A program made the translations under genes and the position numbers. Source: an uncultured virus (IMG/VR IMGVR_UViG_2630968567_000005) (taxonomy: Duplodnaviria > Heunggongvirae > Uroviricota > Caudoviricetes). From it: 64,000 nt of DNA. The stretch is from IMG/VR virus record IMGVR_UViG_2630968567_000005; one strand, written 5' to 3'. The first letter of the stretch is position 1. Every line of letters begins with the position of its first letter. Under the pieces are notes generated by a model. That model had not been told where the DNA came from and ran no database searches. It saw nothing but the letters and a program-made list of their open reading frames with translations. This document shows positions 7,609 through 49,680 of this stretch, one piece after another.

Positions 7609-8309
7609 GACACCTTAGCTGAACCGGGGAAGCCGCCGAACGGCAGCGAGGAAGGTTTCGGATAGCGTTTACGGCACCCTGACGGATGCTTAGAACACTT
7701 ATCTTTTGATGGGTCGGATGTCGGGATATCTTTATCATCAGCAACTGGCGGCCCAGAGTAACCACAGCCATCACCGCGATATATCCACTGGCAAACATCA
7801 GCCAGGATAGTACGCGCGGGAATAATGGCATTATCACAGTCAACAGGAGTGGCAAGGTTGTAAGTCACTGTCTCGAAAGTTTCCTCAACCATTTCTTCAA
7901 TCACGTAGCGGGAAACAACTTCCATCGTGGTATCCGAATCTGGATTGCCACCAGGAAAATTAACTGCATCAAGATTTTGAACCAGAACCTGCCGCCGCGT
8001 TACGATCGCGCCCAATGCATCATCAAAATCGCTGTTAATACCGGTGATTAGGCCGGTGATATTCGCAACCTTCATGGTCGGGCGAGAATATGTACCTTCT
8101 GATTTAACCTCAAAGCCTTCAACAGCTATCGGATAAGCTGAGTATTGCCGCCCTTTCCAGATAACATCACCGTAATAACCGTTAGTTCCAGAGTGAAAGC
8201 GGATAACATCACCGCCGAATGACTGCAAATCAACCTCGAATAGGTCAATCATTGCGCCAACGCCAGAGTCCACACTCTCAATTATTAAATTGGCTGGTAT
8301 ATCGCGCAC
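7605..8309 (-). CDS. L: Minor tail protein L
   Basis: 'CQWIYRGDGCGY...DKCSK...C...FGGFPG' Cys motif. Confidence 0.93.
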   Translation of the reverse strand: MRDIPANLIIESVDSGVGAMIDLFEVDLQSFGGDVIRFHSGTNGYYGDVIWKGRQYSAYPIAVEGFEVKSEGTYSRPTMKVANITGLITGINSDFDDALGAIVTRRQVLVQNLDAVNFPGGNPDSDTTMEVVSRYVIEEMVEETFETVTYNLATPVDCDNAIIPARTILADVCQWIYRGDGCGYSGPPVADDKDIPTSDPSKDKCSKHPSGCRKRYPKPSSLPFGGFPGSAKVS

Positions 8310-33725: not shown

Positions 33726-33973
33726 TTGGTCTCGCCTCTGTGGTCTCTACGGTCACGCCAGTAATTTAAGCGCTCTTTAAAAAACTCTCGGTAATGCACC
33801 GGTACCCGTTCAATCGCTTCAAGTACATGAGCGCGGTTGGTCCTGCGCTCGTACAGGTTTTTGATTAAGCCGCTGGCTCTCAAATCAAGATTTAGCTTTT
33901 CTTGGTATTCCTGAGGCCAGAGGCAAATGTTGTACGGGAGTCCGGGCGGGAGATAATCAGATTGCCCGGACAT
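33722..33973 (-). CDS. DNA polymerase III theta-like protein (HolE/Hot-like)
   Basis: 'YNI...QEYQEKLNLDLRASG...PVHYREFFKERLNYWR' resembles theta. Confidence 0.65.
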   Translation of the reverse strand: MSGQSDYLPPGLPYNICLWPQEYQEKLNLDLRASGLIKNLYERRTNRAHVLEAIERVPVHYREFFKERLNYWRDRRDHRGETK

Positions 33974-33977
33974 GGTA

Positions 33978-34358
33978 TTAACTCCCCATGCCTACAGTGC
34001 TCATCAGTTGATTTATTCGGGATGCTCGCAAGCAGTACGCCAACTCCTTATCATCAAATGGCATTCTGGCGGGTTTAGTTCGGGGTTCGCTTTTATTGCG
34101 TTTGACTTGTGTGTCAGAGAATCGGAAAAAATCCTCTGAGATACTGTTGAGGGTGTATTGAGTCTTTCGACCATTGCGGCGGGTAATGTCTGCATGAGGT
34201 GAGAGCACCATGCTTCTCACACGGATACGCAGTACGTTAATAGGCATTTCAGCATTAGGGAATTTTAAAGCTATAGCCTCGATAATCTGGCTGTAGCTCA
34301 TGCTTTGGCCCAGCATAACCTCAGCCAATTCACGGGTAGTTAGTTCACGTTTTTTCAT
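33978..34358 (-). CDS. Hypothetical protein, possible winged helix
   Basis: 126-aa ORF after dnaB. Confidence 0.55.
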   Translation of the reverse strand: MKKRELTTRELAEVMLGQSMSYSQIIEAIALKFPNAEMPINVLRIRVRSMVLSPHADITRRNGRKTQYTLNSISEDFFRFSDTQVKRNKSEPRTKPARMPFDDKELAYCLRASRINQLMSTVGMGS

Positions 34359-34402
34359 GGTCTTGCCTCTTTTGGGGTTACTTAAACGCTGGTCAGGCGC
34401 GG

Positions 34403-36737: not shown

Positions 36738-36962
36738 TCAGATCCCTAGCGCTTCGGCTATTTGCCGACAGGCAGACTGATAATCGTCAGGCGATAGGTT
36801 CATCCCGCGCAGGTCGGCTTTCTTTTGTTCATACTGCTCCCACACGCTATAGGCGGCTACCTGACGCCCGGCAAAAATAGGGGCGATGTCAACCATGCTT
36901 GCCGGTTGGCCGTTAAGCCGGAATCCGTTGCGCCAGGTGATTTTGTCGATAGATGTAAGCAT
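36738..36962 (-). CDS. Hypothetical protein
   Basis: 74-aa ORF with AGAGG RBS. Confidence 0.65.
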   Translation of the reverse strand: MLTSIDKITWRNGFRLNGQPASMVDIAPIFAGRQVAAYSVWEQYEQKKADLRGMNLSPDDYQSACRQIAEALGI

Positions 36963-36978
36963 TGGTCTTGCCTCTGTT

Positions 36979-37466: not shown

Positions 37467-37510
37467 TTGATTATTGATAATCAGATTTGTGAGTGGGATT
37501 GGGTTAGGCT
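37467..37510 (+). promoter_or_regulatory. YdaT/CII-type site and pRE-like promoter
   Basis: TTGATT-N6-AATCAG followed after 20 nt by TAGGCT. Confidence 0.6.
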
Positions 37511-38487: not shown

Positions 38488-38539
38488 GTAACTATTGGAA
38501 CACCCCCTTATTGACACGAAAGGTAACTATAGGTACATT
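38488..38539 (+). promoter_or_regulatory. pL promoter with OL operators
   Basis: TTGACA(38511)-17-TACATT; GTAACTATTGGAAC and GTAACTATAGGTAC. Confidence 0.75.
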
Positions 38540-38840: not shown

Positions 38841-39150
38841 CAGAATTTGGGTTGTTGCATTGGAGGAGAACCCCGCGCCAAGGCTCGGCATGATTACCAC
38901 AGTGCAGCAGCCCAAACCAATAACGTAGCCACGACGGGAAAGTGTGGTGAGGCAAGACCGAAGATCTGACCCGCTGGCCCGGCGTAATGGGCACCAAATT
39001 ACAGACGTAAAAAAACCCACCGAAGTGGGCTTCTTTACCCCGGGTCACCGACCAAAGTTAACCGGGAAGCTAACGGGGACCAACCCGTTAACAGAGGCAA
39101 GACCAACGGCTTACGCCATCAATCTTAAAATAAGTATATCAGGAGTTGCT

Positions 39151-39486: not shown

Positions 39487-39541
39487 TTAGTCATACATCA
39501 AAGACCAAGATCCGTTTAAAAACCAAAGAGGCAAGACCAAC

Positions 39542-41740
39542 ATGACTGTATTTATTTGTTTATTCGAGCCGAAAAAAGCGGCTCTCAAAAATGGGGCTAT
39601 ACCGCTTGTTATAGCTCTGGAAGCCATAAATAAGAAAATGGCATCCGCACTGGCCATCGGGAAATTATGGGAAGCCTACCCCGCTGCCGGTGATAACTTT
39701 GCTGATCCGAAAATCTGTGAGGATACTGTCGGGCAACCGCGCCCGGTTGTTGGTGAGTTCGATGAGCAGTTCGCACAGGATAATACCTTTGATGGCAAAG
39801 TATGGACGCCTAATGCTGTACCGTTGCCTGAGGATGGTAATGAAGACAACGGCGAGGTAAGTGAGGACATTACTACTACTACTCCGGTTGATTTCAACAA
39901 ACTGGGTATTGGAGCTAAAGTTGGTAGCGTAATGTTGTACGGTGCGCGTGACATTGATTCACATGAGCTATCACTTGTGTATGACTTAATTAATGATGAC
40001 GACGCTGAGCCGGAAATAAGTTCGATATACATGGCGCTCACATGTATTCCTGCAATTGGCGCGATGTATCCGCAGTCAATTAAAAATCTTATTGATGCGA
40101 TAAATAAGAAATTCCCCAAAATACCTGGATTCAGGGAAGTACGTAGCTTTGCTGAAAAATGGGTTAATGAACCCAGCAATCGTGACGAGTTAACCGGTAC
40201 TAAAAAAGTTGCCCGTATTGACACGCCGGCTCCTGATGCGCCAATCAAACGCAGCTTTGAGCACACATATAAAACGCTCGATCTCGAAGTCGCTCTCGCC
40301 TTATTGCCTGCTGATTTTAACTGCTGGGATGTCATGTCGGCAGAGATGAAGCAAGCAAAAGAGCTGATGGATAACAATGATGATGCCTGGCGTAAATGGT
40401 CAACCGATTTTCGCGTTCGCAACAATGTGTTATCTATTCCATGTGAAAGCATCTTTGAAGTGATCCGCGCGGGTAAAAAGCAACCTATCTTCCTGACCGA
40501 TGCCTCAGCACGAAAGGAATTTATCACTCAGTGTTTAGCCGTTAAAAACCCACAACCCGCAGTAACCAATCTGGGTGATGGCAAGTTCTCTATTGATGGT
40601 CTAGCCGGTGGTGAACCGCAACCAGCGGCAAACAATGAAACAAAACTGGCGCTGGTTGCCAATTCTGAGCCAGAAACTGAAACAAAACCGCCAATTGTTG
40701 AAACAGAACAGGAAAACCCTGAACTGGAACCTATCACTGATAACGCAGCTCAACAGGCTAAAGAGACGTTGGATCAGTTGGGTTACAGCGTTTATGCCTC
40801 AGTTGAGGAGAAGCCGACAGAGGTTATTGAAGAGGCGCAGCAAAGCGCTATTCCTACTGTAGATGTTACTGCTGATGAATTTCAGCAGCGAGCCGTCATC
40901 ATTGAAGAGGATATATCTTCACAGCCACAAGATGTGCAGGACAACATGAATCTGTGGCGCTCGGTGCAAAGAACCGATGAACGCTTTACTAAAGCATTCT
41001 CAAATAACGGTGGTGGCACGTCGATTAACGGCACCTATATGGTTATGCAAGCAACAAAATTGCTTGGGCCACAAGGTATCAACTGGCGGGTGGAGATTTT
41101 AGAAGAACGCTTTGATAACGGTGCACCGATCATGCGGTCAGTCAAAGGTGCTGATGGAAATTATATAAAAGAAGTCATACCCAACGGATCTGGCGGCTAT
41201 CTAACTGAGATCAATCATGTCATTAAAATACGCTTAATCTACACCCTGCGTGGTGAGCGTGGCGAAATCCCTGCATATGGTTGCACCCCATATATCTACA
41301 ACACCAAAAACGGTCTCACCTGTGATAGTGAAGTCACCAAAAAATCACTAACGGATGCGACTAAAAAGGCACTGTCACAACTTGGTTTCTCTGCTGATGT
41401 ATTCCTCGGTCTTTTTGATGATCTCGGATACCGCACTGATAACGCCGCTGAGTTTGCTATCAAGAACGCAAGTGAGAAAGCCGGTGACTCAGTTCGTCTG
41501 CGCAAAGAGCTGGATGAGAAGTTAACCAAAGTAGGCAATACCATTACGAGCGCCGTCACCACCAACGAAGTGAACAAGGTTTACAGCACCATTGCGCGTG
41601 AAGTTGATGTACACCGCAAAGATGCAGAAGCCAAAGCCGATCACGAACACGCCAATTACCTCAAAACCCGCCTGCTGGCGTTACACCGCTTAACTGAAAA
41701 ACGGGTTGCTGAACTTACCGCACAGGAGCCGACATTATGA
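39542..41740 (+). CDS. RecE-N-terminal-like region fused to a Rad52/Sak-like annealing domain
   Basis: 'TYKTLDLEVALAL' RecE-like segment; C-terminal 'TKLLGPQGINW...KKSLTDATKKALSQLGFSADVFLG'. Confidence 0.7.
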   Translation: MTVFICLFEPKKAALKNGAIPLVIALEAINKKMASALAIGKLWEAYPAAGDNFADPKICEDTVGQPRPVVGEFDEQFAQDNTFDGKVWTPNAVPLPEDGNEDNGEVSEDITTTTPVDFNKLGIGAKVGSVMLYGARDIDSHELSLVYDLINDDDAEPEISSIYMALTCIPAIGAMYPQSIKNLIDAINKKFPKIPGFREVRSFAEKWVNEPSNRDELTGTKKVARIDTPAPDAPIKRSFEHTYKTLDLEVALALLPADFNCWDVMSAEMKQAKELMDNNDDAWRKWSTDFRVRNNVLSIPCESIFEVIRAGKKQPIFLTDASARKEFITQCLAVKNPQPAVTNLGDGKFSIDGLAGGEPQPAANNETKLALVANSEPETETKPPIVETEQENPELEPITDNAAQQAKETLDQLGYSVYASVEEKPTEVIEEAQQSAIPTVDVTADEFQQRAVIIEEDISSQPQDVQDNMNLWRSVQRTDERFTKAFSNNGGGTSINGTYMVMQATKLLGPQGINWRVEILEERFDNGAPIMRSVKGADGNYIKEVIPNGSGGYLTEINHVIKIRLIYTLRGERGEIPAYGCTPYIYNTKNGLTCDSEVTKKSLTDATKKALSQLGFSADVFLGLFDDLGYRTDNAAEFAIKNASEKAGDSVRLRKELDEKLTKVGNTITSAVTTNEVNKVYSTIAREVDVHRKDAEAKADHEHANYLKTRLLALHRLTEKRVAELTAQEPTL

Positions 41741-42237: not shown

Positions 42238-42282
42238 TTTCATCCCGCCCCAAACCAACGGGGCATTACTGAGGCAACACCC

Positions 42283-42465
42283 ATGCTAAAGCGTACTCAC
42301 AAACGCGGTGAAAAGTCCTATATCACACTCCCCGATGGACGAACAGGCACCATCCACACTGATCGCCGTTGTGATGTTCACTACGATTTTCCGGTAGATG
42401 TTCGAATTAGCAGCACCCCACCGCAGAAAGCACCCGAAAAATTGATTTTGCATAATCAGAAATAA
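42283..42465 (+). CDS. Small protein with a CsrA-like sequence pattern
   Basis: ML..T.K.GE...I...G...I......P.DV.I; GAGG RBS. Confidence 0.55.
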   Translation: MLKRTHKRGEKSYITLPDGRTGTIHTDRRCDVHYDFPVDVRISSTPPQKAPEKLILHNQK

Positions 42466-42485
42466 TCAACCTGCCCCGCTAGCAT
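42442..42485 (+). promoter_or_regulatory. YdaT/CII-type site and pI-like promoter
   Basis: TTGATT-N6-AATCAG followed after 20 nt by TAGCAT; same geometry as 37467. Confidence 0.6.
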
Positions 42486-42514: not shown

Positions 42515-42721
42515 ATGCAGCCATGGCAACCGGGCAAACGCCTATTAACCGACTTAGATATTAAGATCGGCAAATTATCAGCCAGTGTACGGAAACAACA
42601 ACTCACCGACCACGATATACAGCGGGCCTGTTCTGCGACCGACAGAGCAATAACCCAAATGATACAGGGGCAAGACCATGAAAAACGACCACGACATAAT
42701 CACCAAAGAGGAGATGATTGA
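42515..42721 (+). CDS. Hypothetical protein
   Basis: 68-aa ORF with AGGGA RBS. Confidence 0.5.
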   Translation: MQPWQPGKRLLTDLDIKIGKLSASVRKQQLTDHDIQRACSATDRAITQMIQGQDHEKRPRHNHQRGDD

Positions 42722-42914
42722 GTTGACCGGTCATCACTACAAAACCAAACAATGTGACTCTTTACGCCGCTCGGGGATCTTTTTTATCCGACGCCCAGAC
42801 GGACACCCGAAAACCACTTGGGGCCATTTTTTGAATCCAATCAGTTTACGCGGTAAGCCGCTAGAGCCAGAAAAAGAAGAACCCAATTTCGAGGCCATGA
42901 ACAGTGGCCGGTAA
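42678..42914 (+). CDS. Excisionase-like protein (DUF4224-type)
   Basis: 'ELTGH...KQC..L...GI.F..R.DGHP', 'EPNFEAM'; overlaps int. Confidence 0.8.
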   Translation: MKNDHDIITKEEMIELTGHHYKTKQCDSLRRSGIFFIRRPDGHPKTTWGHFLNPISLRGKPLEPEKEEPNFEAMNSGR

Positions 42915-44445: not shown

Positions 44446-45084
44446 TCAAGCTAAATAAGGTCTATCTTTGCTTGTATCCAATAAATCAAAGAAAAAGACA
44501 TCTTCGATCCTGTTGTTAACACCTATTTTAATGTTTGTAGAGTTATTGAAAAAAAAGTCTAAATGATATCGGGGATGTAAACGGCCATTAGCGTTGTCTT
44601 CATCATCATCAAATCTAAAGTAGCCATGATCAATGAGTAAAAGCGATGATATTGCATCACAGTAATTAATAGCCCGCTGCATATCCCTGTCAAAGTTATC
44701 ACAAAGATCGACAGAAATAGCCTCATGAGAAAAATAACCATTTTCGCAAGTGGTAATAACATTTCTGCATCTAGATATGAACTCTGAATTGACAGGCATT
44801 GCATAAGCATCATAGTTAAAACTTATATTCTCTTCATATTCAATAACTTGAAAAGGTAAGTTCATAGTGAAGAAACCATCTGGTTTTCTAACAATAATTC
44901 TTTTATTGGTCCCTGTATTTATCAATAAATCAAAGTCTTTTGTTTCTTTGTTCCAAGACTGATGACAGGAGTTAATTATCTCAGCCGTTACAAGCAAGTT
45001 TTCTAAATTTGAGAAAACATCTCTTACTGGCTTGAATCTTTCAAAATACTCAAAAGGTATATCTCTAAAAAAATACTGACTCAT
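44446..45084 (-). CDS. DUF2290-like protein, partner of the helicase
   Basis: C-terminal 'GYFRFDDD...HPRYHLD' motif; 4-nt overlap with the helicase. Confidence 0.6.
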   Translation of the reverse strand: MSQYFFRDIPFEYFERFKPVRDVFSNLENLLVTAEIINSCHQSWNKETKDFDLLINTGTNKRIIVRKPDGFFTMNLPFQVIEYEENISFNYDAYAMPVNSEFISRCRNVITTCENGYFSHEAISVDLCDNFDRDMQRAINYCDAISSLLLIDHGYFRFDDDEDNANGRLHPRYHLDFFFNNSTNIKIGVNNRIEDVFFFDLLDTSKDRPYLA

Positions 45085-47063
45085 AATTTCACATTCCTGT
45101 GATATTCAACCTCAATGAGTTGAGCAACATAATCCCCATCAATTTCATCATCTTCAGAAATCATTCTTTTTACTCTGTCTGTTATTTTTGCAATCAAACG
45201 CGGAGTAGCGTTTTTATCAGCACAAAAGTTTTTTACCATAAGTGAAATTGAAATAGGTTCATCTAAGACAATAAAGTCTTTTTGATTAATTATTTCCTGC
45301 TCCGACGGAAGTCGGACATTCATGTAATTATTTACATTCAGAAAATCTAAACCTTGCTGAATATTTACCATTGCGGGATTTTCTTTATCATTACTCAATA
45401 CTAAGTGACTCTCTAAAAACGAACGAGCCATCATCGTATAGAGAGCATTTCGGAATGTGGATTTTTTTACTAACTTCATAGCAAAACAAATTACAAATGG
45501 AAATTCTAAGCCTTTGGCATTATTAATGTTTGAGATAAATAGCTTACCATCTTGTTTGGACTTTGTTTCGTGAGAAATATTTGAGTCCCAACCTAACTCT
45601 TGTTTTACTTTTAATTTAAGTGATTGAATAACATCATAAATATACCCTGCGGTATCAAGGAAAATCACAGCTATATCACCCTGATCCAGAGTTGGATGTC
45701 TACGCCTAATATCCTTTATGATATCAATAATTTTTGCAGGCCCATTATCCTGCTGGTCGAGTAAATGAAGAGCCGTACTTTTATAATCCTTAGGTATATC
45801 TTCAAATCTTCGTAATGGATCTCTTGATAATTCCACACGATTATCTATTTGTTTGTATTTGTAGCCGCAGGAGTCCCACTCCGCTTTCTTTAGCCATCGT
45901 AAAACGGGTTCTTCATATAAACCCATACCTAGAGCATGTGAAAACATTAAATTCTTTGGGTCGGTTCTGTAACATTTTTTTAAAACTATATCTGCTCTAT
46001 TTACATTATCACTAATCGGCATGAAAATATTCTGAAATACATCTCCAGCAACATAAATCTTTTTAGATGTAACCATTTCGCATAGGTCAATAAAACTCTG
46101 CGGAAAATCTTGGCTTTCATCAATGAACAAATAATCAAGCGCTTTTTTTTCAGAGCGACCACTATTATTGATGTCAATTATTGCTTTCTTACAGAGAGCA
46201 TCAAAGTCTCCGTTTCCGAAACCACCAAAAGGAATTTCATAAAAGTGACAAATGTATCTATACATACCTGAGAATGGATCGCGGCTTAAGCCCCATGAGT
46301 TAAAGCAAAAAAGTTTCGATCCCCATTCAATTTGTTTTTCAACTCTCATGAAATCAAAGAATTCTGGTATTCTGCTCCGCATTGTAGAAGCAAGAATTTT
46401 ATTATGGCAAGTGAAAGCTATCTTCAAATCTGGATTTTTAGAATAAACCTCTTTGAGTTTATGTAATAATAATTCTGTTTTACCAGAACCAGCTAAACCC
46501 TGAATGACACTTTTTTTACCTAAGTTACTCTGAAAAACAAAGCTGGTTTGATCTGTATCGAAAAGGATTATCTTTGATTTAACCGTATCTAGCAGATTAT
46601 TTGCTTCTAGATTTATTCTTGAAGTATCATTGATGCTTCCAACAATTAGAGAGATGATTAAATCAATGACTCTACTTTCTTTTATTTCGACAGTGAGACT
46701 ATTAAAATCGAGGTTGTCATATGGCAGCACCTCAAAAAGACTATGCCAAGATTTCTTTCTACCTATTTTTTCTCTATATTTAAACTTTTCAGCCAGAAAA
46801 GACACGTCCTCCAGAAAGTCCTCCTGATATTCTTCAAACAGTTCTGAATCGTCCCCCACATTAATGAAAAATGGCTTAACACCTGATGAAAAAACAGCAA
46901 TAGCTTGATCGTAATCGTATTTTACGTCTTCGTTCGACAAAGGTCTGCAAAGAATGTAAGTTTGTTTTTTATTTTGATTTGCATACTCGTTTATTAATTC
47001 ATCTATCCCAACGCTTTGAGCTAAAGTAAGTGCATCTTGTGAGTAAAAACAATAAGTTGACAT
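45081..47063 (-). CDS. Superfamily 1 helicase, putative anti-phage
   Basis: 'GLAGSGKT', 'IDESQD', 'CYRT', 'AKGLEF', 'LYTMMARS'; AT-rich. Confidence 0.85.
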   Translation of the reverse strand: MSTYCFYSQDALTLAQSVGIDELINEYANQNKKQTYILCRPLSNEDVKYDYDQAIAVFSSGVKPFFINVGDDSELFEEYQEDFLEDVSFLAEKFKYREKIGRKKSWHSLFEVLPYDNLDFNSLTVEIKESRVIDLIISLIVGSINDTSRINLEANNLLDTVKSKIILFDTDQTSFVFQSNLGKKSVIQGLAGSGKTELLLHKLKEVYSKNPDLKIAFTCHNKILASTMRSRIPEFFDFMRVEKQIEWGSKLFCFNSWGLSRDPFSGMYRYICHFYEIPFGGFGNGDFDALCKKAIIDINNSGRSEKKALDYLFIDESQDFPQSFIDLCEMVTSKKIYVAGDVFQNIFMPISDNVNRADIVLKKCYRTDPKNLMFSHALGMGLYEEPVLRWLKKAEWDSCGYKYKQIDNRVELSRDPLRRFEDIPKDYKSTALHLLDQQDNGPAKIIDIIKDIRRRHPTLDQGDIAVIFLDTAGYIYDVIQSLKLKVKQELGWDSNISHETKSKQDGKLFISNINNAKGLEFPFVICFAMKLVKKSTFRNALYTMMARSFLESHLVLSNDKENPAMVNIQQGLDFLNVNNYMNVRLPSEQEIINQKDFIVLDEPISISLMVKNFCADKNATPRLIAKITDRVKRMISEDDEIDGDYVAQLIEVEYHRNVKL

Positions 47064-47535: not shown

Positions 47536-48528
47536 ATGGCTGATAATTCAGAGTCTTTTGCAAGCGTCGATCAGATTACATCTCGCCCAAACTATTTAGC
47601 AAGATTAGAGATTACCGTAGATAGCTTTAGCTCGCTTATAGGTCGTTATCACCTCAGTGAAAGCGTTAAATGTCAAGTTAAAACTGAATACGGCATCTGT
47701 GGACAAAAGCATCAACGCGGATATGTTGGTGTTACAAAAGAAGGTAAGGAAGGTCTAATTGGAGGAATTTGTGGTGATAAATATTTTAAAGAACACACAC
47801 TATTTGTTCAGGAAAAAAATCGTATAGATGCTGAGATTGATAGAAGAGAAAATATTGAGAAATTGATTGTCTATAAAGAAAGTTTTCTTTCTTTATCCGG
47901 TGTTTATGGTGCGCTATCCCAAAATATTCAAACAATGAAAAAGAAAACCAACCACCTTTACAATGGTTTTCCAGACATTGTTTTGACATATTTATATCAA
48001 GCCCAAAAAACAAAAAATTGGGATTTGAATGTTGATGTCTTACGCCATACACGAGGTGAAAAAGGGATGACAAGCAACTGGTATATTGAAAAGCTTTGTA
48101 CATTCCCGCCTTTACCATCTGCACAAGAAATTCAAAGTTTGTTAGGTAGGGTAGAAAATCTAAAAACTATTTTTAGCGAAGCTTGTTCTTCCAATATAGA
48201 AGAGCTATCAACACCAAAGTTAAAAGGTTATGTAAGAAGTCTTTCTGATTTTTATGAGTTAGAAAATATTTATACAAAATTTGATAAAGATGTAGAAGAA
48301 TTTACTCAAGATCATACCTTGTACAATTTGTATTATGCTTGTGCTAACAATAAAGACAAATTAGCTACTATTAAAACAATTTTAACTGCCAACAACTCCA
48401 ATCTCTCAGAACAATTGGTAAAATATAAATGTGACGAAATTGAGAGAATAACTAAAGAAAAATTCGATAACTGTCAAGTTAGATATAATAAGACAGTGAT
48501 GAAATTTAAGAAAAACAGTATTGGTTAA
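47536..48528 (+). CDS. AT-rich hypothetical protein with an N-terminal Cys/His cluster and helical C-terminus
   Basis: 'C.......C...H..GY.......IG..C' motif; AAGGA RBS; followed by a terminator. Confidence 0.75.
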   Translation: MADNSESFASVDQITSRPNYLARLEITVDSFSSLIGRYHLSESVKCQVKTEYGICGQKHQRGYVGVTKEGKEGLIGGICGDKYFKEHTLFVQEKNRIDAEIDRRENIEKLIVYKESFLSLSGVYGALSQNIQTMKKKTNHLYNGFPDIVLTYLYQAQKTKNWDLNVDVLRHTRGEKGMTSNWYIEKLCTFPPLPSAQEIQSLLGRVENLKTIFSEACSSNIEELSTPKLKGYVRSLSDFYELENIYTKFDKDVEEFTQDHTLYNLYYACANNKDKLATIKTILTANNSNLSEQLVKYKCDEIERITKEKFDNCQVRYNKTVMKFKKNSIG

Positions 48529-48645: not shown

Positions 48646-49680
48646 TCAGCACTTCTTTGAAATGCGATCATATGGATTCAAACTCACCGCCGCTTCTAAA
48701 TGATCCGGTGCAAAGTGGCTGTAGCGCATGGTCATTTGGATAGTGGAGTGCCCGAGGATTTGTTGCAGTACTAATATGTTACCGCCGTTCATCATAAAAT
48801 GACTGGCGAAAGTATGGCGTAGAACGTGGGTTAACTGGCCGGTAGGTAATACCAGCTTGGCCCGGTCGATAGCTTGACCGAATGCGTCATAGGCATTGAC
48901 GAATAAGCGCCCTTTCATCTTTGGAATCAGTTTATGCAGTTCCGCAGAAATAGGGACTGTACGGTTCTTTTTACTCTTGGTGTTGATATAAGTAATTTTG
49001 TTTGGCATCACCTGAGCTTGTCTTAGTTGCTCCGCTTCACTCCAGCGCGCACCGGTGGCTAGACAGATACGAACAATGATACCGAGATCTTTATTGCTGG
49101 AGTTGTCACACTCATGCAGTAGACGCTTAATATCGTCCTCATAAAGAAAAGTTAATTCGTTTTCACTTTCACGAAATAACCTGACGCCATCCAGCGGATT
49201 TGCATGATTCCAATGCCCTAGCCTTTTCAACTCATTAAAGACAGCTCGCAGATAAGCATGTTCGCGGTTGACCGTTGCCTCTTTTGGCGGTTTAACGATT
49301 CCGTGTTTTGGCTTACGACTAAACTCACCGGCTAAACGCTGCTTGCGGTATTTGGCGAACACTTCCCGGTCAAAATCGGCAACAGCAGGATCGCCCAAGT
49401 TATCACACAGGATATTGAGTTTATCTAATCTTGCTTTGCCGTCACTCAAAGAGCGCCCGTGGAGTTCATACCACTGACCGACCAATGTTTTTAACCTCTG
49501 CGCGGCAGTCTCTGCCGGGGTGTAGTCAATATCCAGATCACCACGTTGCGCTAACTGCTCACGTTCAAAGCGCAACGCCTCGCCGCGAGTAACAAAGGTT
49601 TTCCTAACCCGCTTACTATCACGGCCATCTGAGTAAAAATCACAGACCCACTTCCCGTTGGGTAACTTCCGTACTGCCAT
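48646..49680 (-). CDS. int: 186/HP1-type tyrosine integrase
   Basis: 'TGARWSE', 'HVLRHTFASHFMMNGGNILVLQQILGH...TMRY'. Confidence 0.95.
   Translation of the reverse strand: MAVRKLPNGKWVCDFYSDGRDSKRVRKTFVTRGEALRFEREQLAQRGDLDIDYTPAETAAQRLKTLVGQWYELHGRSLSDGKARLDKLNILCDNLGDPAVADFDREVFAKYRKQRLAGEFSRKPKHGIVKPPKEATVNREHAYLRAVFNELKRLGHWNHANPLDGVRLFRESENELTFLYEDDIKRLLHECDNSSNKDLGIIVRICLATGARWSEAEQLRQAQVMPNKITYINTKSKKNRTVPISAELHKLIPKMKGRLFVNAYDAFGQAIDRAKLVLPTGQLTHVLRHTFASHFMMNGGNILVLQQILGHSTIQMTMRYSHFAPDHLEAAVSLNPYDRISKKC

Follow-up and report, generated by a model that had tools for sequence, protein, structure and literature searches.

Within a 64,000-nucleotide stretch of DNA from an uncultured virus (hereafter, the window), the explanation that we favor, with a probability of roughly 55%, is that a phrog_2482 protein without R44 and helix H1 is a remote member of the CsrA superfamily that acts as an accessory post-transcriptional factor, and that the GACC motif repeated at early ribosome binding sites (RBSs) is read through base pairing by a predicted antisense RNA at 39126 to 39009. 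What is established in this account is that the gene exists and is conserved, that the motif is present, that Rfam isrB matches the antisense element, and that the motif copy within this element co-varies with the form of the motif at the RBSs.

The phrog_2482 gene and its locus

An earlier note on this DNA had described a 60-amino-acid (60-aa) ORF at 42271 to 42465. This ORF is present, with 60 codons at 42283 to 42465 on the plus strand and a product that begins MLKRTHKRGEKSY; the start given in the note takes in the RBS, as the ATG at 42283 is directly preceded by GAGGCAACACCC at 42271 to 42282. The ORF gives a full-length match to phrog_2482 (E = 7e-17), a family that has no function assigned in PHROGs, and a Pfam search with it returned zero families at E ≤ 1. 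In a comparison of 16 distinct relatives, codons 2 to 46 have a pN of 0 to 0.16 versus a pS of 0.18 to 0.81, which shows that the ORF is a real gene under purifying selection. The element that carries it is a ZF40-like lambdoid prophage, in which the leftward early operon runs in the order cI, a promoter-like site (38511 to 38539), a 111-aa gene, exonuclease, Gp157, the ORF, a 68-aa gene, xis, and int, so that the ORF lies between Gp157 and xis-int. Among the named relatives of the ORF, the closest come from Yersinia, and more distant ones are found in Providencia, Proteus, Pectobacterium, Brenneria, Xenorhabdus, Serratia, Dickeya, and Photorhabdus. The features of this part of the operon are as follows.

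42283-42465, plus strand: 60-aa phrog_2482 protein, likely a remote CsrA-superfamily member, with five predicted beta strands, no R44, and no helix H1
42515-42721, plus strand: 68-aa gene, phrog_27062, which accompanies the ORF in most loci
42442-42459, no strand: YdaT/CII-type inverted repeat, TTGATT-N6-AATCAG, within the 3' end of the ORF

The consensus of the YdaT repeat was taken from PMC9986795. The window contains two such repeats versus 0.37 expected (a count reached by 7 of 100 shuffles), the twin of the one in the ORF, with the same TTGATT-N6-AATCAG form, lying at 37467 to 37484 between cro and cII. The repeat in the ORF tail, seen in 10 of 17 loci, is the probable reason for the conserved LI..NQK ending of the product. 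A TAGCAT hexamer is located at 42480, ~30 nt after this repeat. The repeats at 37467 to 37484 and 42442 to 42459 are possible equivalents of pRE and pI, and if the one in the ORF tail drives a transcript through xis and int, a block of the xis RBS would favor integration.

Beyond int is a low-GC block with a 660-aa UvrD-like helicase and its 212-aa partner (44446 to 47063, minus strand), as well as a 330-aa unknown protein (47536 to 48528, plus strand). It is adjoined by a second integrase (48646 to 49680) and looks like the defense cargo of a neighboring element.

The repeated RBS motif and an IsrB-like antisense element

The motif AGAGGCAAGACCA occurs in six copies at ≤1 mismatch versus 0.10 expected, and 0 of 100 shuffles reached six. 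Each of them lies on the sense strand of one of the two early operons, and in five cases the copy directly adjoins an ATG. The five copies at RBSs, the degenerate copy that serves as the RBS of the ORF itself, and a hairpin upstream of it are as follows.

39527-39539, plus strand: motif at the exonuclease RBS (gene 39542-41740, phrog_2489)
42666-42678, plus strand: motif at the xis RBS (gene 42678-42914, DUF4224/phrog_1266)
36963-36975, minus strand: motif at the RBS of phrog_2465, the 74-aa gene that follows cII (36738-36962, minus strand)
34358-34370, minus strand: motif at the RBS of a 126-aa gene after dnaB
33727-33739, minus strand: motif at the RBS of a 168-aa gene before the DNA methyltransferase gene
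42271-42282, plus strand: RBS of the ORF, degenerate motif copy GAGGCAACACCC
42247-42264, plus strand: hairpin upstream of the ORF RBS, with loop AAACCAAC (a GACCAA hexaloop in relatives such as L475)

The RBS of the ORF deviates from the motif 13-mer at 3 positions and is thus a variant of it, as had been noted earlier. Among 30 related viral loci, the RBS of this gene is the perfect GAGGCAAGACCA in 17, the variant found in the window in 11, and another form in 2. A copy with 2 mismatches at 38948 to 38960, in the leftward leader, is followed by no start codon and is present in many relatives. Look-alikes of the 74-aa phrog_2465 gene are found in most motif-bearing prophages, including several without the phrog_2482 gene, and the 74-aa gene is a further candidate partner of the motif circuit. 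A motif scan across genome contigs gave mostly single chance matches and was set aside.

Upstream of the exonuclease gene, on the opposite strand, is a predicted RNA that contains the complement of the motif.

39009-39126, minus strand: predicted IsrB-like antisense small RNA (sRNA), ~118 nt, the 5' end placed by inference from the -10 box
39133-39138, minus strand: predicted -10 box of the sRNA, TG-n-TATACT

The element consists of a 5' hairpin, an anti-RBS seed (the complement of 39093 to 39105), two hairpins with UUGGUC loops, and an intrinsic terminator. Rfam isrB matches it at 39010 to 39096 on the minus strand with 35.0 bits, which is borderline, being equal to the gathering score of 35; five element-bearing relatives tested against the same model did not reach that score. 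Among viral loci that overlap and are not independent of one another, the element is present in 78 of 78 that have at least three motif copies, versus 0 of the 9 remaining loci. In genome regions, it is present in all five motif-bearing prophages that lack the phrog_2482 gene and in none of three motif-less ones. The motif copy within the element tracks five RBS variants (CAAGACC, AAAGACC, CAAAACC, AATAACC, and TATGACC).

Several features point to the antisense strand as the one transcribed. It folds better than the sense strand in 21 of 21 loci, an advantage that is partly due to its G/U-rich composition. A -10 box (at least 5 of 6 positions matching, 24 to 32 nt from the motif) is found on the antisense strand in 20 of the 21 loci versus 3 of 21 on the sense strand, and the 5' helix has many changes that are G-U or one-sided on the antisense strand. 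A CsrB-like sponge made from the sense strand was our first candidate for the element, and we lowered it because the -10 box, the terminator, and the wobble pairs favor the opposite strand; a weak match to Rfam rsmX (23.6 versus 56 bits) was rejected. As near-duplicates, L475 was omitted from the folding and -10 box counts, and both L475 and L476 were omitted from one further comparison. Also left out were L490 (951 bp), L479 (noise match), L471 (fragment), and L473 (overlaps L474), and L489 stops short of the position of the element.

The predicted duplexes between the sRNA and the five motif RBSs have energies of -25 to -36 kcal/mol, versus a median of -12.5 kcal/mol at 141 starts with a Shine-Dalgarno (SD) sequence. 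With the RBS of the ORF itself, the seed is predicted to form a duplex of -19.3 kcal/mol, compared with -29.3 kcal/mol for the perfect form in the relative L024. UUGG loops are suited to antisense recognition; a literature search on this subject found no paper.

The element resembles IsrB of the Salmonella Gifsy prophages (RF01386) in its position upstream of the exonuclease gene on the opposite strand, in having the same UUUGGUCG loop, and in its terminator. What sets it apart from IsrB is an additional UUGGUC hairpin, together with a complete complement of the motif that recurs at five RBSs. The 16-kb region of Gifsy-2 that we examined contains IsrB, and neither a repeated RBS motif nor a phrog_2482 gene was found there, which counts against the reading that we favor. 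C4 and IsrK of P1-, P4-, and Gifsy-1-type phages are structured phage RNAs that pair with repeated target boxes. The window element would likewise be a structured RNA of a phage, with predicted pairing to repeated boxes, but it belongs to a different sequence family, and its targets would be SD-to-start regions in both early operons. The related prophage L482, which has no GACC system, has Rfam matches to C4, IsrK, and sRNA-Xcc1; both it and L481, also without the GACC system, contain many copies of the repeat GCCACCAATACCGGC. Salmonella IsrB has been described as an RNA of 88 to 94 nt at the same position, opposite to the flanking genes, in PMC2330248. Our literature searches on IsrB targets and on multitarget phage antisense RNAs found no named target of IsrB; the motif RBSs give this Salmonella prophage sRNA a testable set of targets.

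In the mechanism that we favor, the sRNA would be made in the lysogen and would pair with the SD-to-start region of at least five early mRNAs, namely, those of exo, xis, and three rightward genes, along with that of the phrog_2482 ORF in most relatives. First contact would be made by the UUGGUC loops at upstream GACCA sites, and the effect of pairing in the lysogen would be to damp leaky lytic translation. The phrog_2482 protein might be produced once the leftward operon is induced; it may be a CsrA-type strand-swapped dimer that does not carry out canonical GGA recognition, and it might tune the RNA circuit as an accessory. If the sRNA reading is true, IsrB-like RNAs would silence prophages at a second level, that of translation, and motif variants could confer superinfection specificity.

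Which molecule reads the motif

In 401 Enterobacteriaceae genomes, 16 have a match to phrog_2482, and all of the 9 genomes with at least three exact motif copies are among them, one of the nine being the genome on which the search was centered. (An order-wide genome search gave 1 of 401 and was too diluted.) We discarded this 9-of-9 co-occurrence as support for a protein reader, because the search pattern missed motif variants and prophages without the gene carry one. The same exonuclease family is present in 20 of the 401 genomes. As a control, 10 regions with this exonuclease family and without the phrog_2482 gene were taken, of which 9 were analyzed: five have a motif variant, three have no motif, and one ends too early. 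The five motif-bearing prophages contain 5 to 8 copies of the variant GAGGTATGACC, mostly at start codons. With a broadened profile, no phrog_2482 homologue was detected in the 16 to 19 kb analyzed of each of these five, and at least four of them have a Gp157-xis gap that could not accommodate the gene. All five have the same motif variant and may represent one lineage. One of them, L487, has a 64-aa beta-rich ORF (7825 to 8016, minus strand) with the motif at its RBS and a loose G..P..V..RRE pattern; this ORF does not score with the family profile and was not seen in the other four prophages.

The earlier note had proposed that the ORF product reads the GACC motif. As an account of the main reader this is not supported, since a motif variant persists in the five prophages without a detectable homologue. 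It is also countered by the viral locus L058, which has five exact motif copies and a gene reduced to a 15-codon remnant, and by the presence of an IsrB-like element in every motif-bearing region examined. It is likely, then, that the predicted phage antisense RNA, rather than the ORF product, reads the motif. The gene is nested within the element system, because the element is present in 14 of 14 intact gene-positive genome loci; that none of the genome loci analyzed has an intact gene without the element would be expected from common ancestry as well as from a common circuit.

A part for the protein in reading the motif is nevertheless suggested by second GACC sites upstream of the RBS copies. 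These are found at 50 of 86 positions in 17 gene-positive loci versus 4 of 26 in five gene-less loci, against a background of 5%, and the excess where the gene is present favors a role for the protein. A dimeric protein reader predicts such paired sites, and the combination of a hairpin-loop site and an SD-adjacent site ~23 nt apart resembles CsrA targets. One possible explanation is that a CsrA-fold protein has exchanged GGA for GACCA recognition and binds the paired sites, working with the IsrB-like antisense RNA as a co-reader or against it as an antagonist that shields the sites after induction. The 9 motif-rich genomes described above, the motif at the gene's own RBS in 17 of 30 close relatives, and the invariance of R29 (alignment A3) also speak for it. 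However, gene-less loci keep the motif, and the sRNAs of gene-negative loci keep one UUGGUC loop. An identical motif accompanies proteins that are only ~35 to 45% alike, with unlike beta-1 strands and with R44 present or absent, so that beta-1 and residue 44 vary freely alongside one motif. Several gene-positive loci have few paired sites (0 of 3, 1 of 7, and 1 of 5). In L477 and L478 the RBS copy has become AACC while the upstream sites are still GACC, which matches the unchanged third loop of the sRNA and not the RBS copy. We therefore consider a switched protein specificity unlikely. If it were true, Enterobacterales prophages would have one RBS code, in several co-varying dialects, read by both RNA and protein, and this dual-read code would switch the early genes from silence to lytic translation.

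Relation of the phrog_2482 protein to CsrA

The defining features of the CsrA family, according to PMC7366521, are five strands, the helix H1, a dimer with intertwined subunits, and R44, which is essential. The phrog_2482 protein resembles CsrA/RsmA (PF02599) in its length and in the pattern and register of five strands, and residues M1 L2, G9 E10, I14, P37, and V40 of the ORF align position for position, without gaps, with E. coli CsrA, which bears out the CsrA-like residue pattern that had been noticed earlier. It differs in a shifted beta-2/3 turn (PDG at residues 17 to 19), in having no predicted helix H1, and, for the window copy, in the loss of R44. The R44-E45 positions of the ORF are occupied by Ser and Thr, in agreement with the earlier observation that the canonical Arg of "HREE" is not evident, and R44-E45 is retained without gaps in 9 of 17 phrog_2482 family members from genomes and phages.

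AlphaFold2 predicts five consecutive beta strands both for the ORF product (pLDDT 75) and for a relative that retains R44 (pLDDT 84). The predicted strands of the ORF product (residues 2 to 6, 11 to 15, 21 to 25, 30 to 34, and 41 to 43) are in the CsrA register. Helix H1 after beta-5 is absent from both models, which have a Pro-rich tail of lower confidence at this point. The monomer of a swapped dimer is a weak query for fold searches: with the monomer models, Foldseek gave nothing significant in the PDB; with the monomer model, Foldseek gave no named significant match among viral structures, and a VIA wide fold search gave no significant match, with a best Z of 4.0; CsrA was not among the matches listed in any of these searches.

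Direct sequence comparisons with canonical CsrA are not significant. The Pfam CsrA model matches 0 of 27 family members, hhalign of the family against canonical CsrA gives a probability of 0.1 to 0.2%, the family scores no better than shuffles against a profile built from 75 canonical CsrA sequences, and the score of the R44-containing subgroup against canonical CsrA was reached by 3 of 80 nulls. A PDB sequence search with the family profile gave only Bap Ig-like repeats and chance matches that share a common PDG hairpin, and these were rejected. In contrast to the direct comparisons, intermediates connect the two families. A close-relative profile run against 1.84 billion proteins gave 15 matches, including the bridge proteins P0058 (E = 2.7e-4) and P0059 (E = 4.7e-4); two unrelated repeat proteins score within the same E range. 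P0058 passes the Pfam CsrA cutoff (36 bits, cutoff 27), matches phrog_2482 with an E of 4.5e-7, and aligns to the family over its full length and without gaps, while P0059 falls below the Pfam cutoff (E = 8e-4). With a wider profile from which the bridges were excluded (composition correction off), P0058 scores 49 bits and P0059 scores 37 bits, and 10 shuffles of P0058 against the bridge-free profile all score ≤0. A search started from P0058 returned only P0058 itself, and the homology via intermediates rests on two single sequences, P0058 and P0059. In the ESM Atlas, CsrA clusters are the sole Pfam-labeled feature matches listed for two family members (0.84, the strength of a lead), and the Atlas model has a TM of 0.68 to a CsrA cluster, which is under the Atlas naming bar.

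Based on the residue register, the predicted strands, and the bridge proteins, we consider it highly probable that the resemblance to CsrA is one of remote, transitive homology. The description "diverged CsrA homologue" in the earlier note thus stands in a remote sense, via P0058, and is not supported by direct profile comparison with canonical CsrA. The ORF product is likely an offshoot of CsrA and not a filed member, because it lacks three features of the family. The unannotated phage family phrog_2482 thereby gains a likely origin in the CsrA superfamily.

The loss of R44 and H1 in the window lineage, with retention of the beta core and P37/V40, would also be expected of an RNA-blind CsrA mimic that exchanges strands with the host protein, or that has a different protein as its partner, dampens host Csr control in lytic growth, and is tied to the motif only as a target. 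CsrA heterodimers are described as plausible but not demonstrated in PMC7366521. However, R44-E45 is retained in roughly half of the members examined, a sign that the ancestor of the family contacted RNA, and a mimic of this kind is quite unlikely. It is very unlikely that the likeness arose by convergence and that this small, beta-rich protein of the phage has a fold other than that of CsrA: canonical CsrA gives no direct profile match, and the top ESM cluster carries an automatic AbrB/MazE-type name without Pfam support, but the bridge P0058 is a member of both families over its full length and without gaps, the CsrA register is exact at R44-E45 and G9/P37/V40, and the AbrB pattern has a central helix, which five helix-less strands do not fit.

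Phage-borne CsrA genes are already known, according to PMC7366521, and we found csrA genes in 88 phage records. The phage-borne CsrA/RsmA members include RsmM of Pseudomonas phages, and the csrA-like genes of F116 and phi297, like the window ORF, are in the repressor-side operon before the recombination genes. Literature searches on phage CsrA found no description of the phrog_2482 family or of the GACC motif; IsrB and phage CsrA are known, whereas our literature searches turned up neither a lineage that has lost R44 and H1 nor IsrB-like RNAs that match repeated RBS variants. Pectobacterium phage ZF40 shares the gene order of the window, and its gp05 protein is also a phrog_2482 member, encoded at the same place, with Gp157 on one side and the 68-aa gene, xis, and int on the other, but it retains R44-E45, unlike the window ORF. 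Such natural forms with and without R44 are material for studying the gain or loss of RNA specificity in the CsrA fold.
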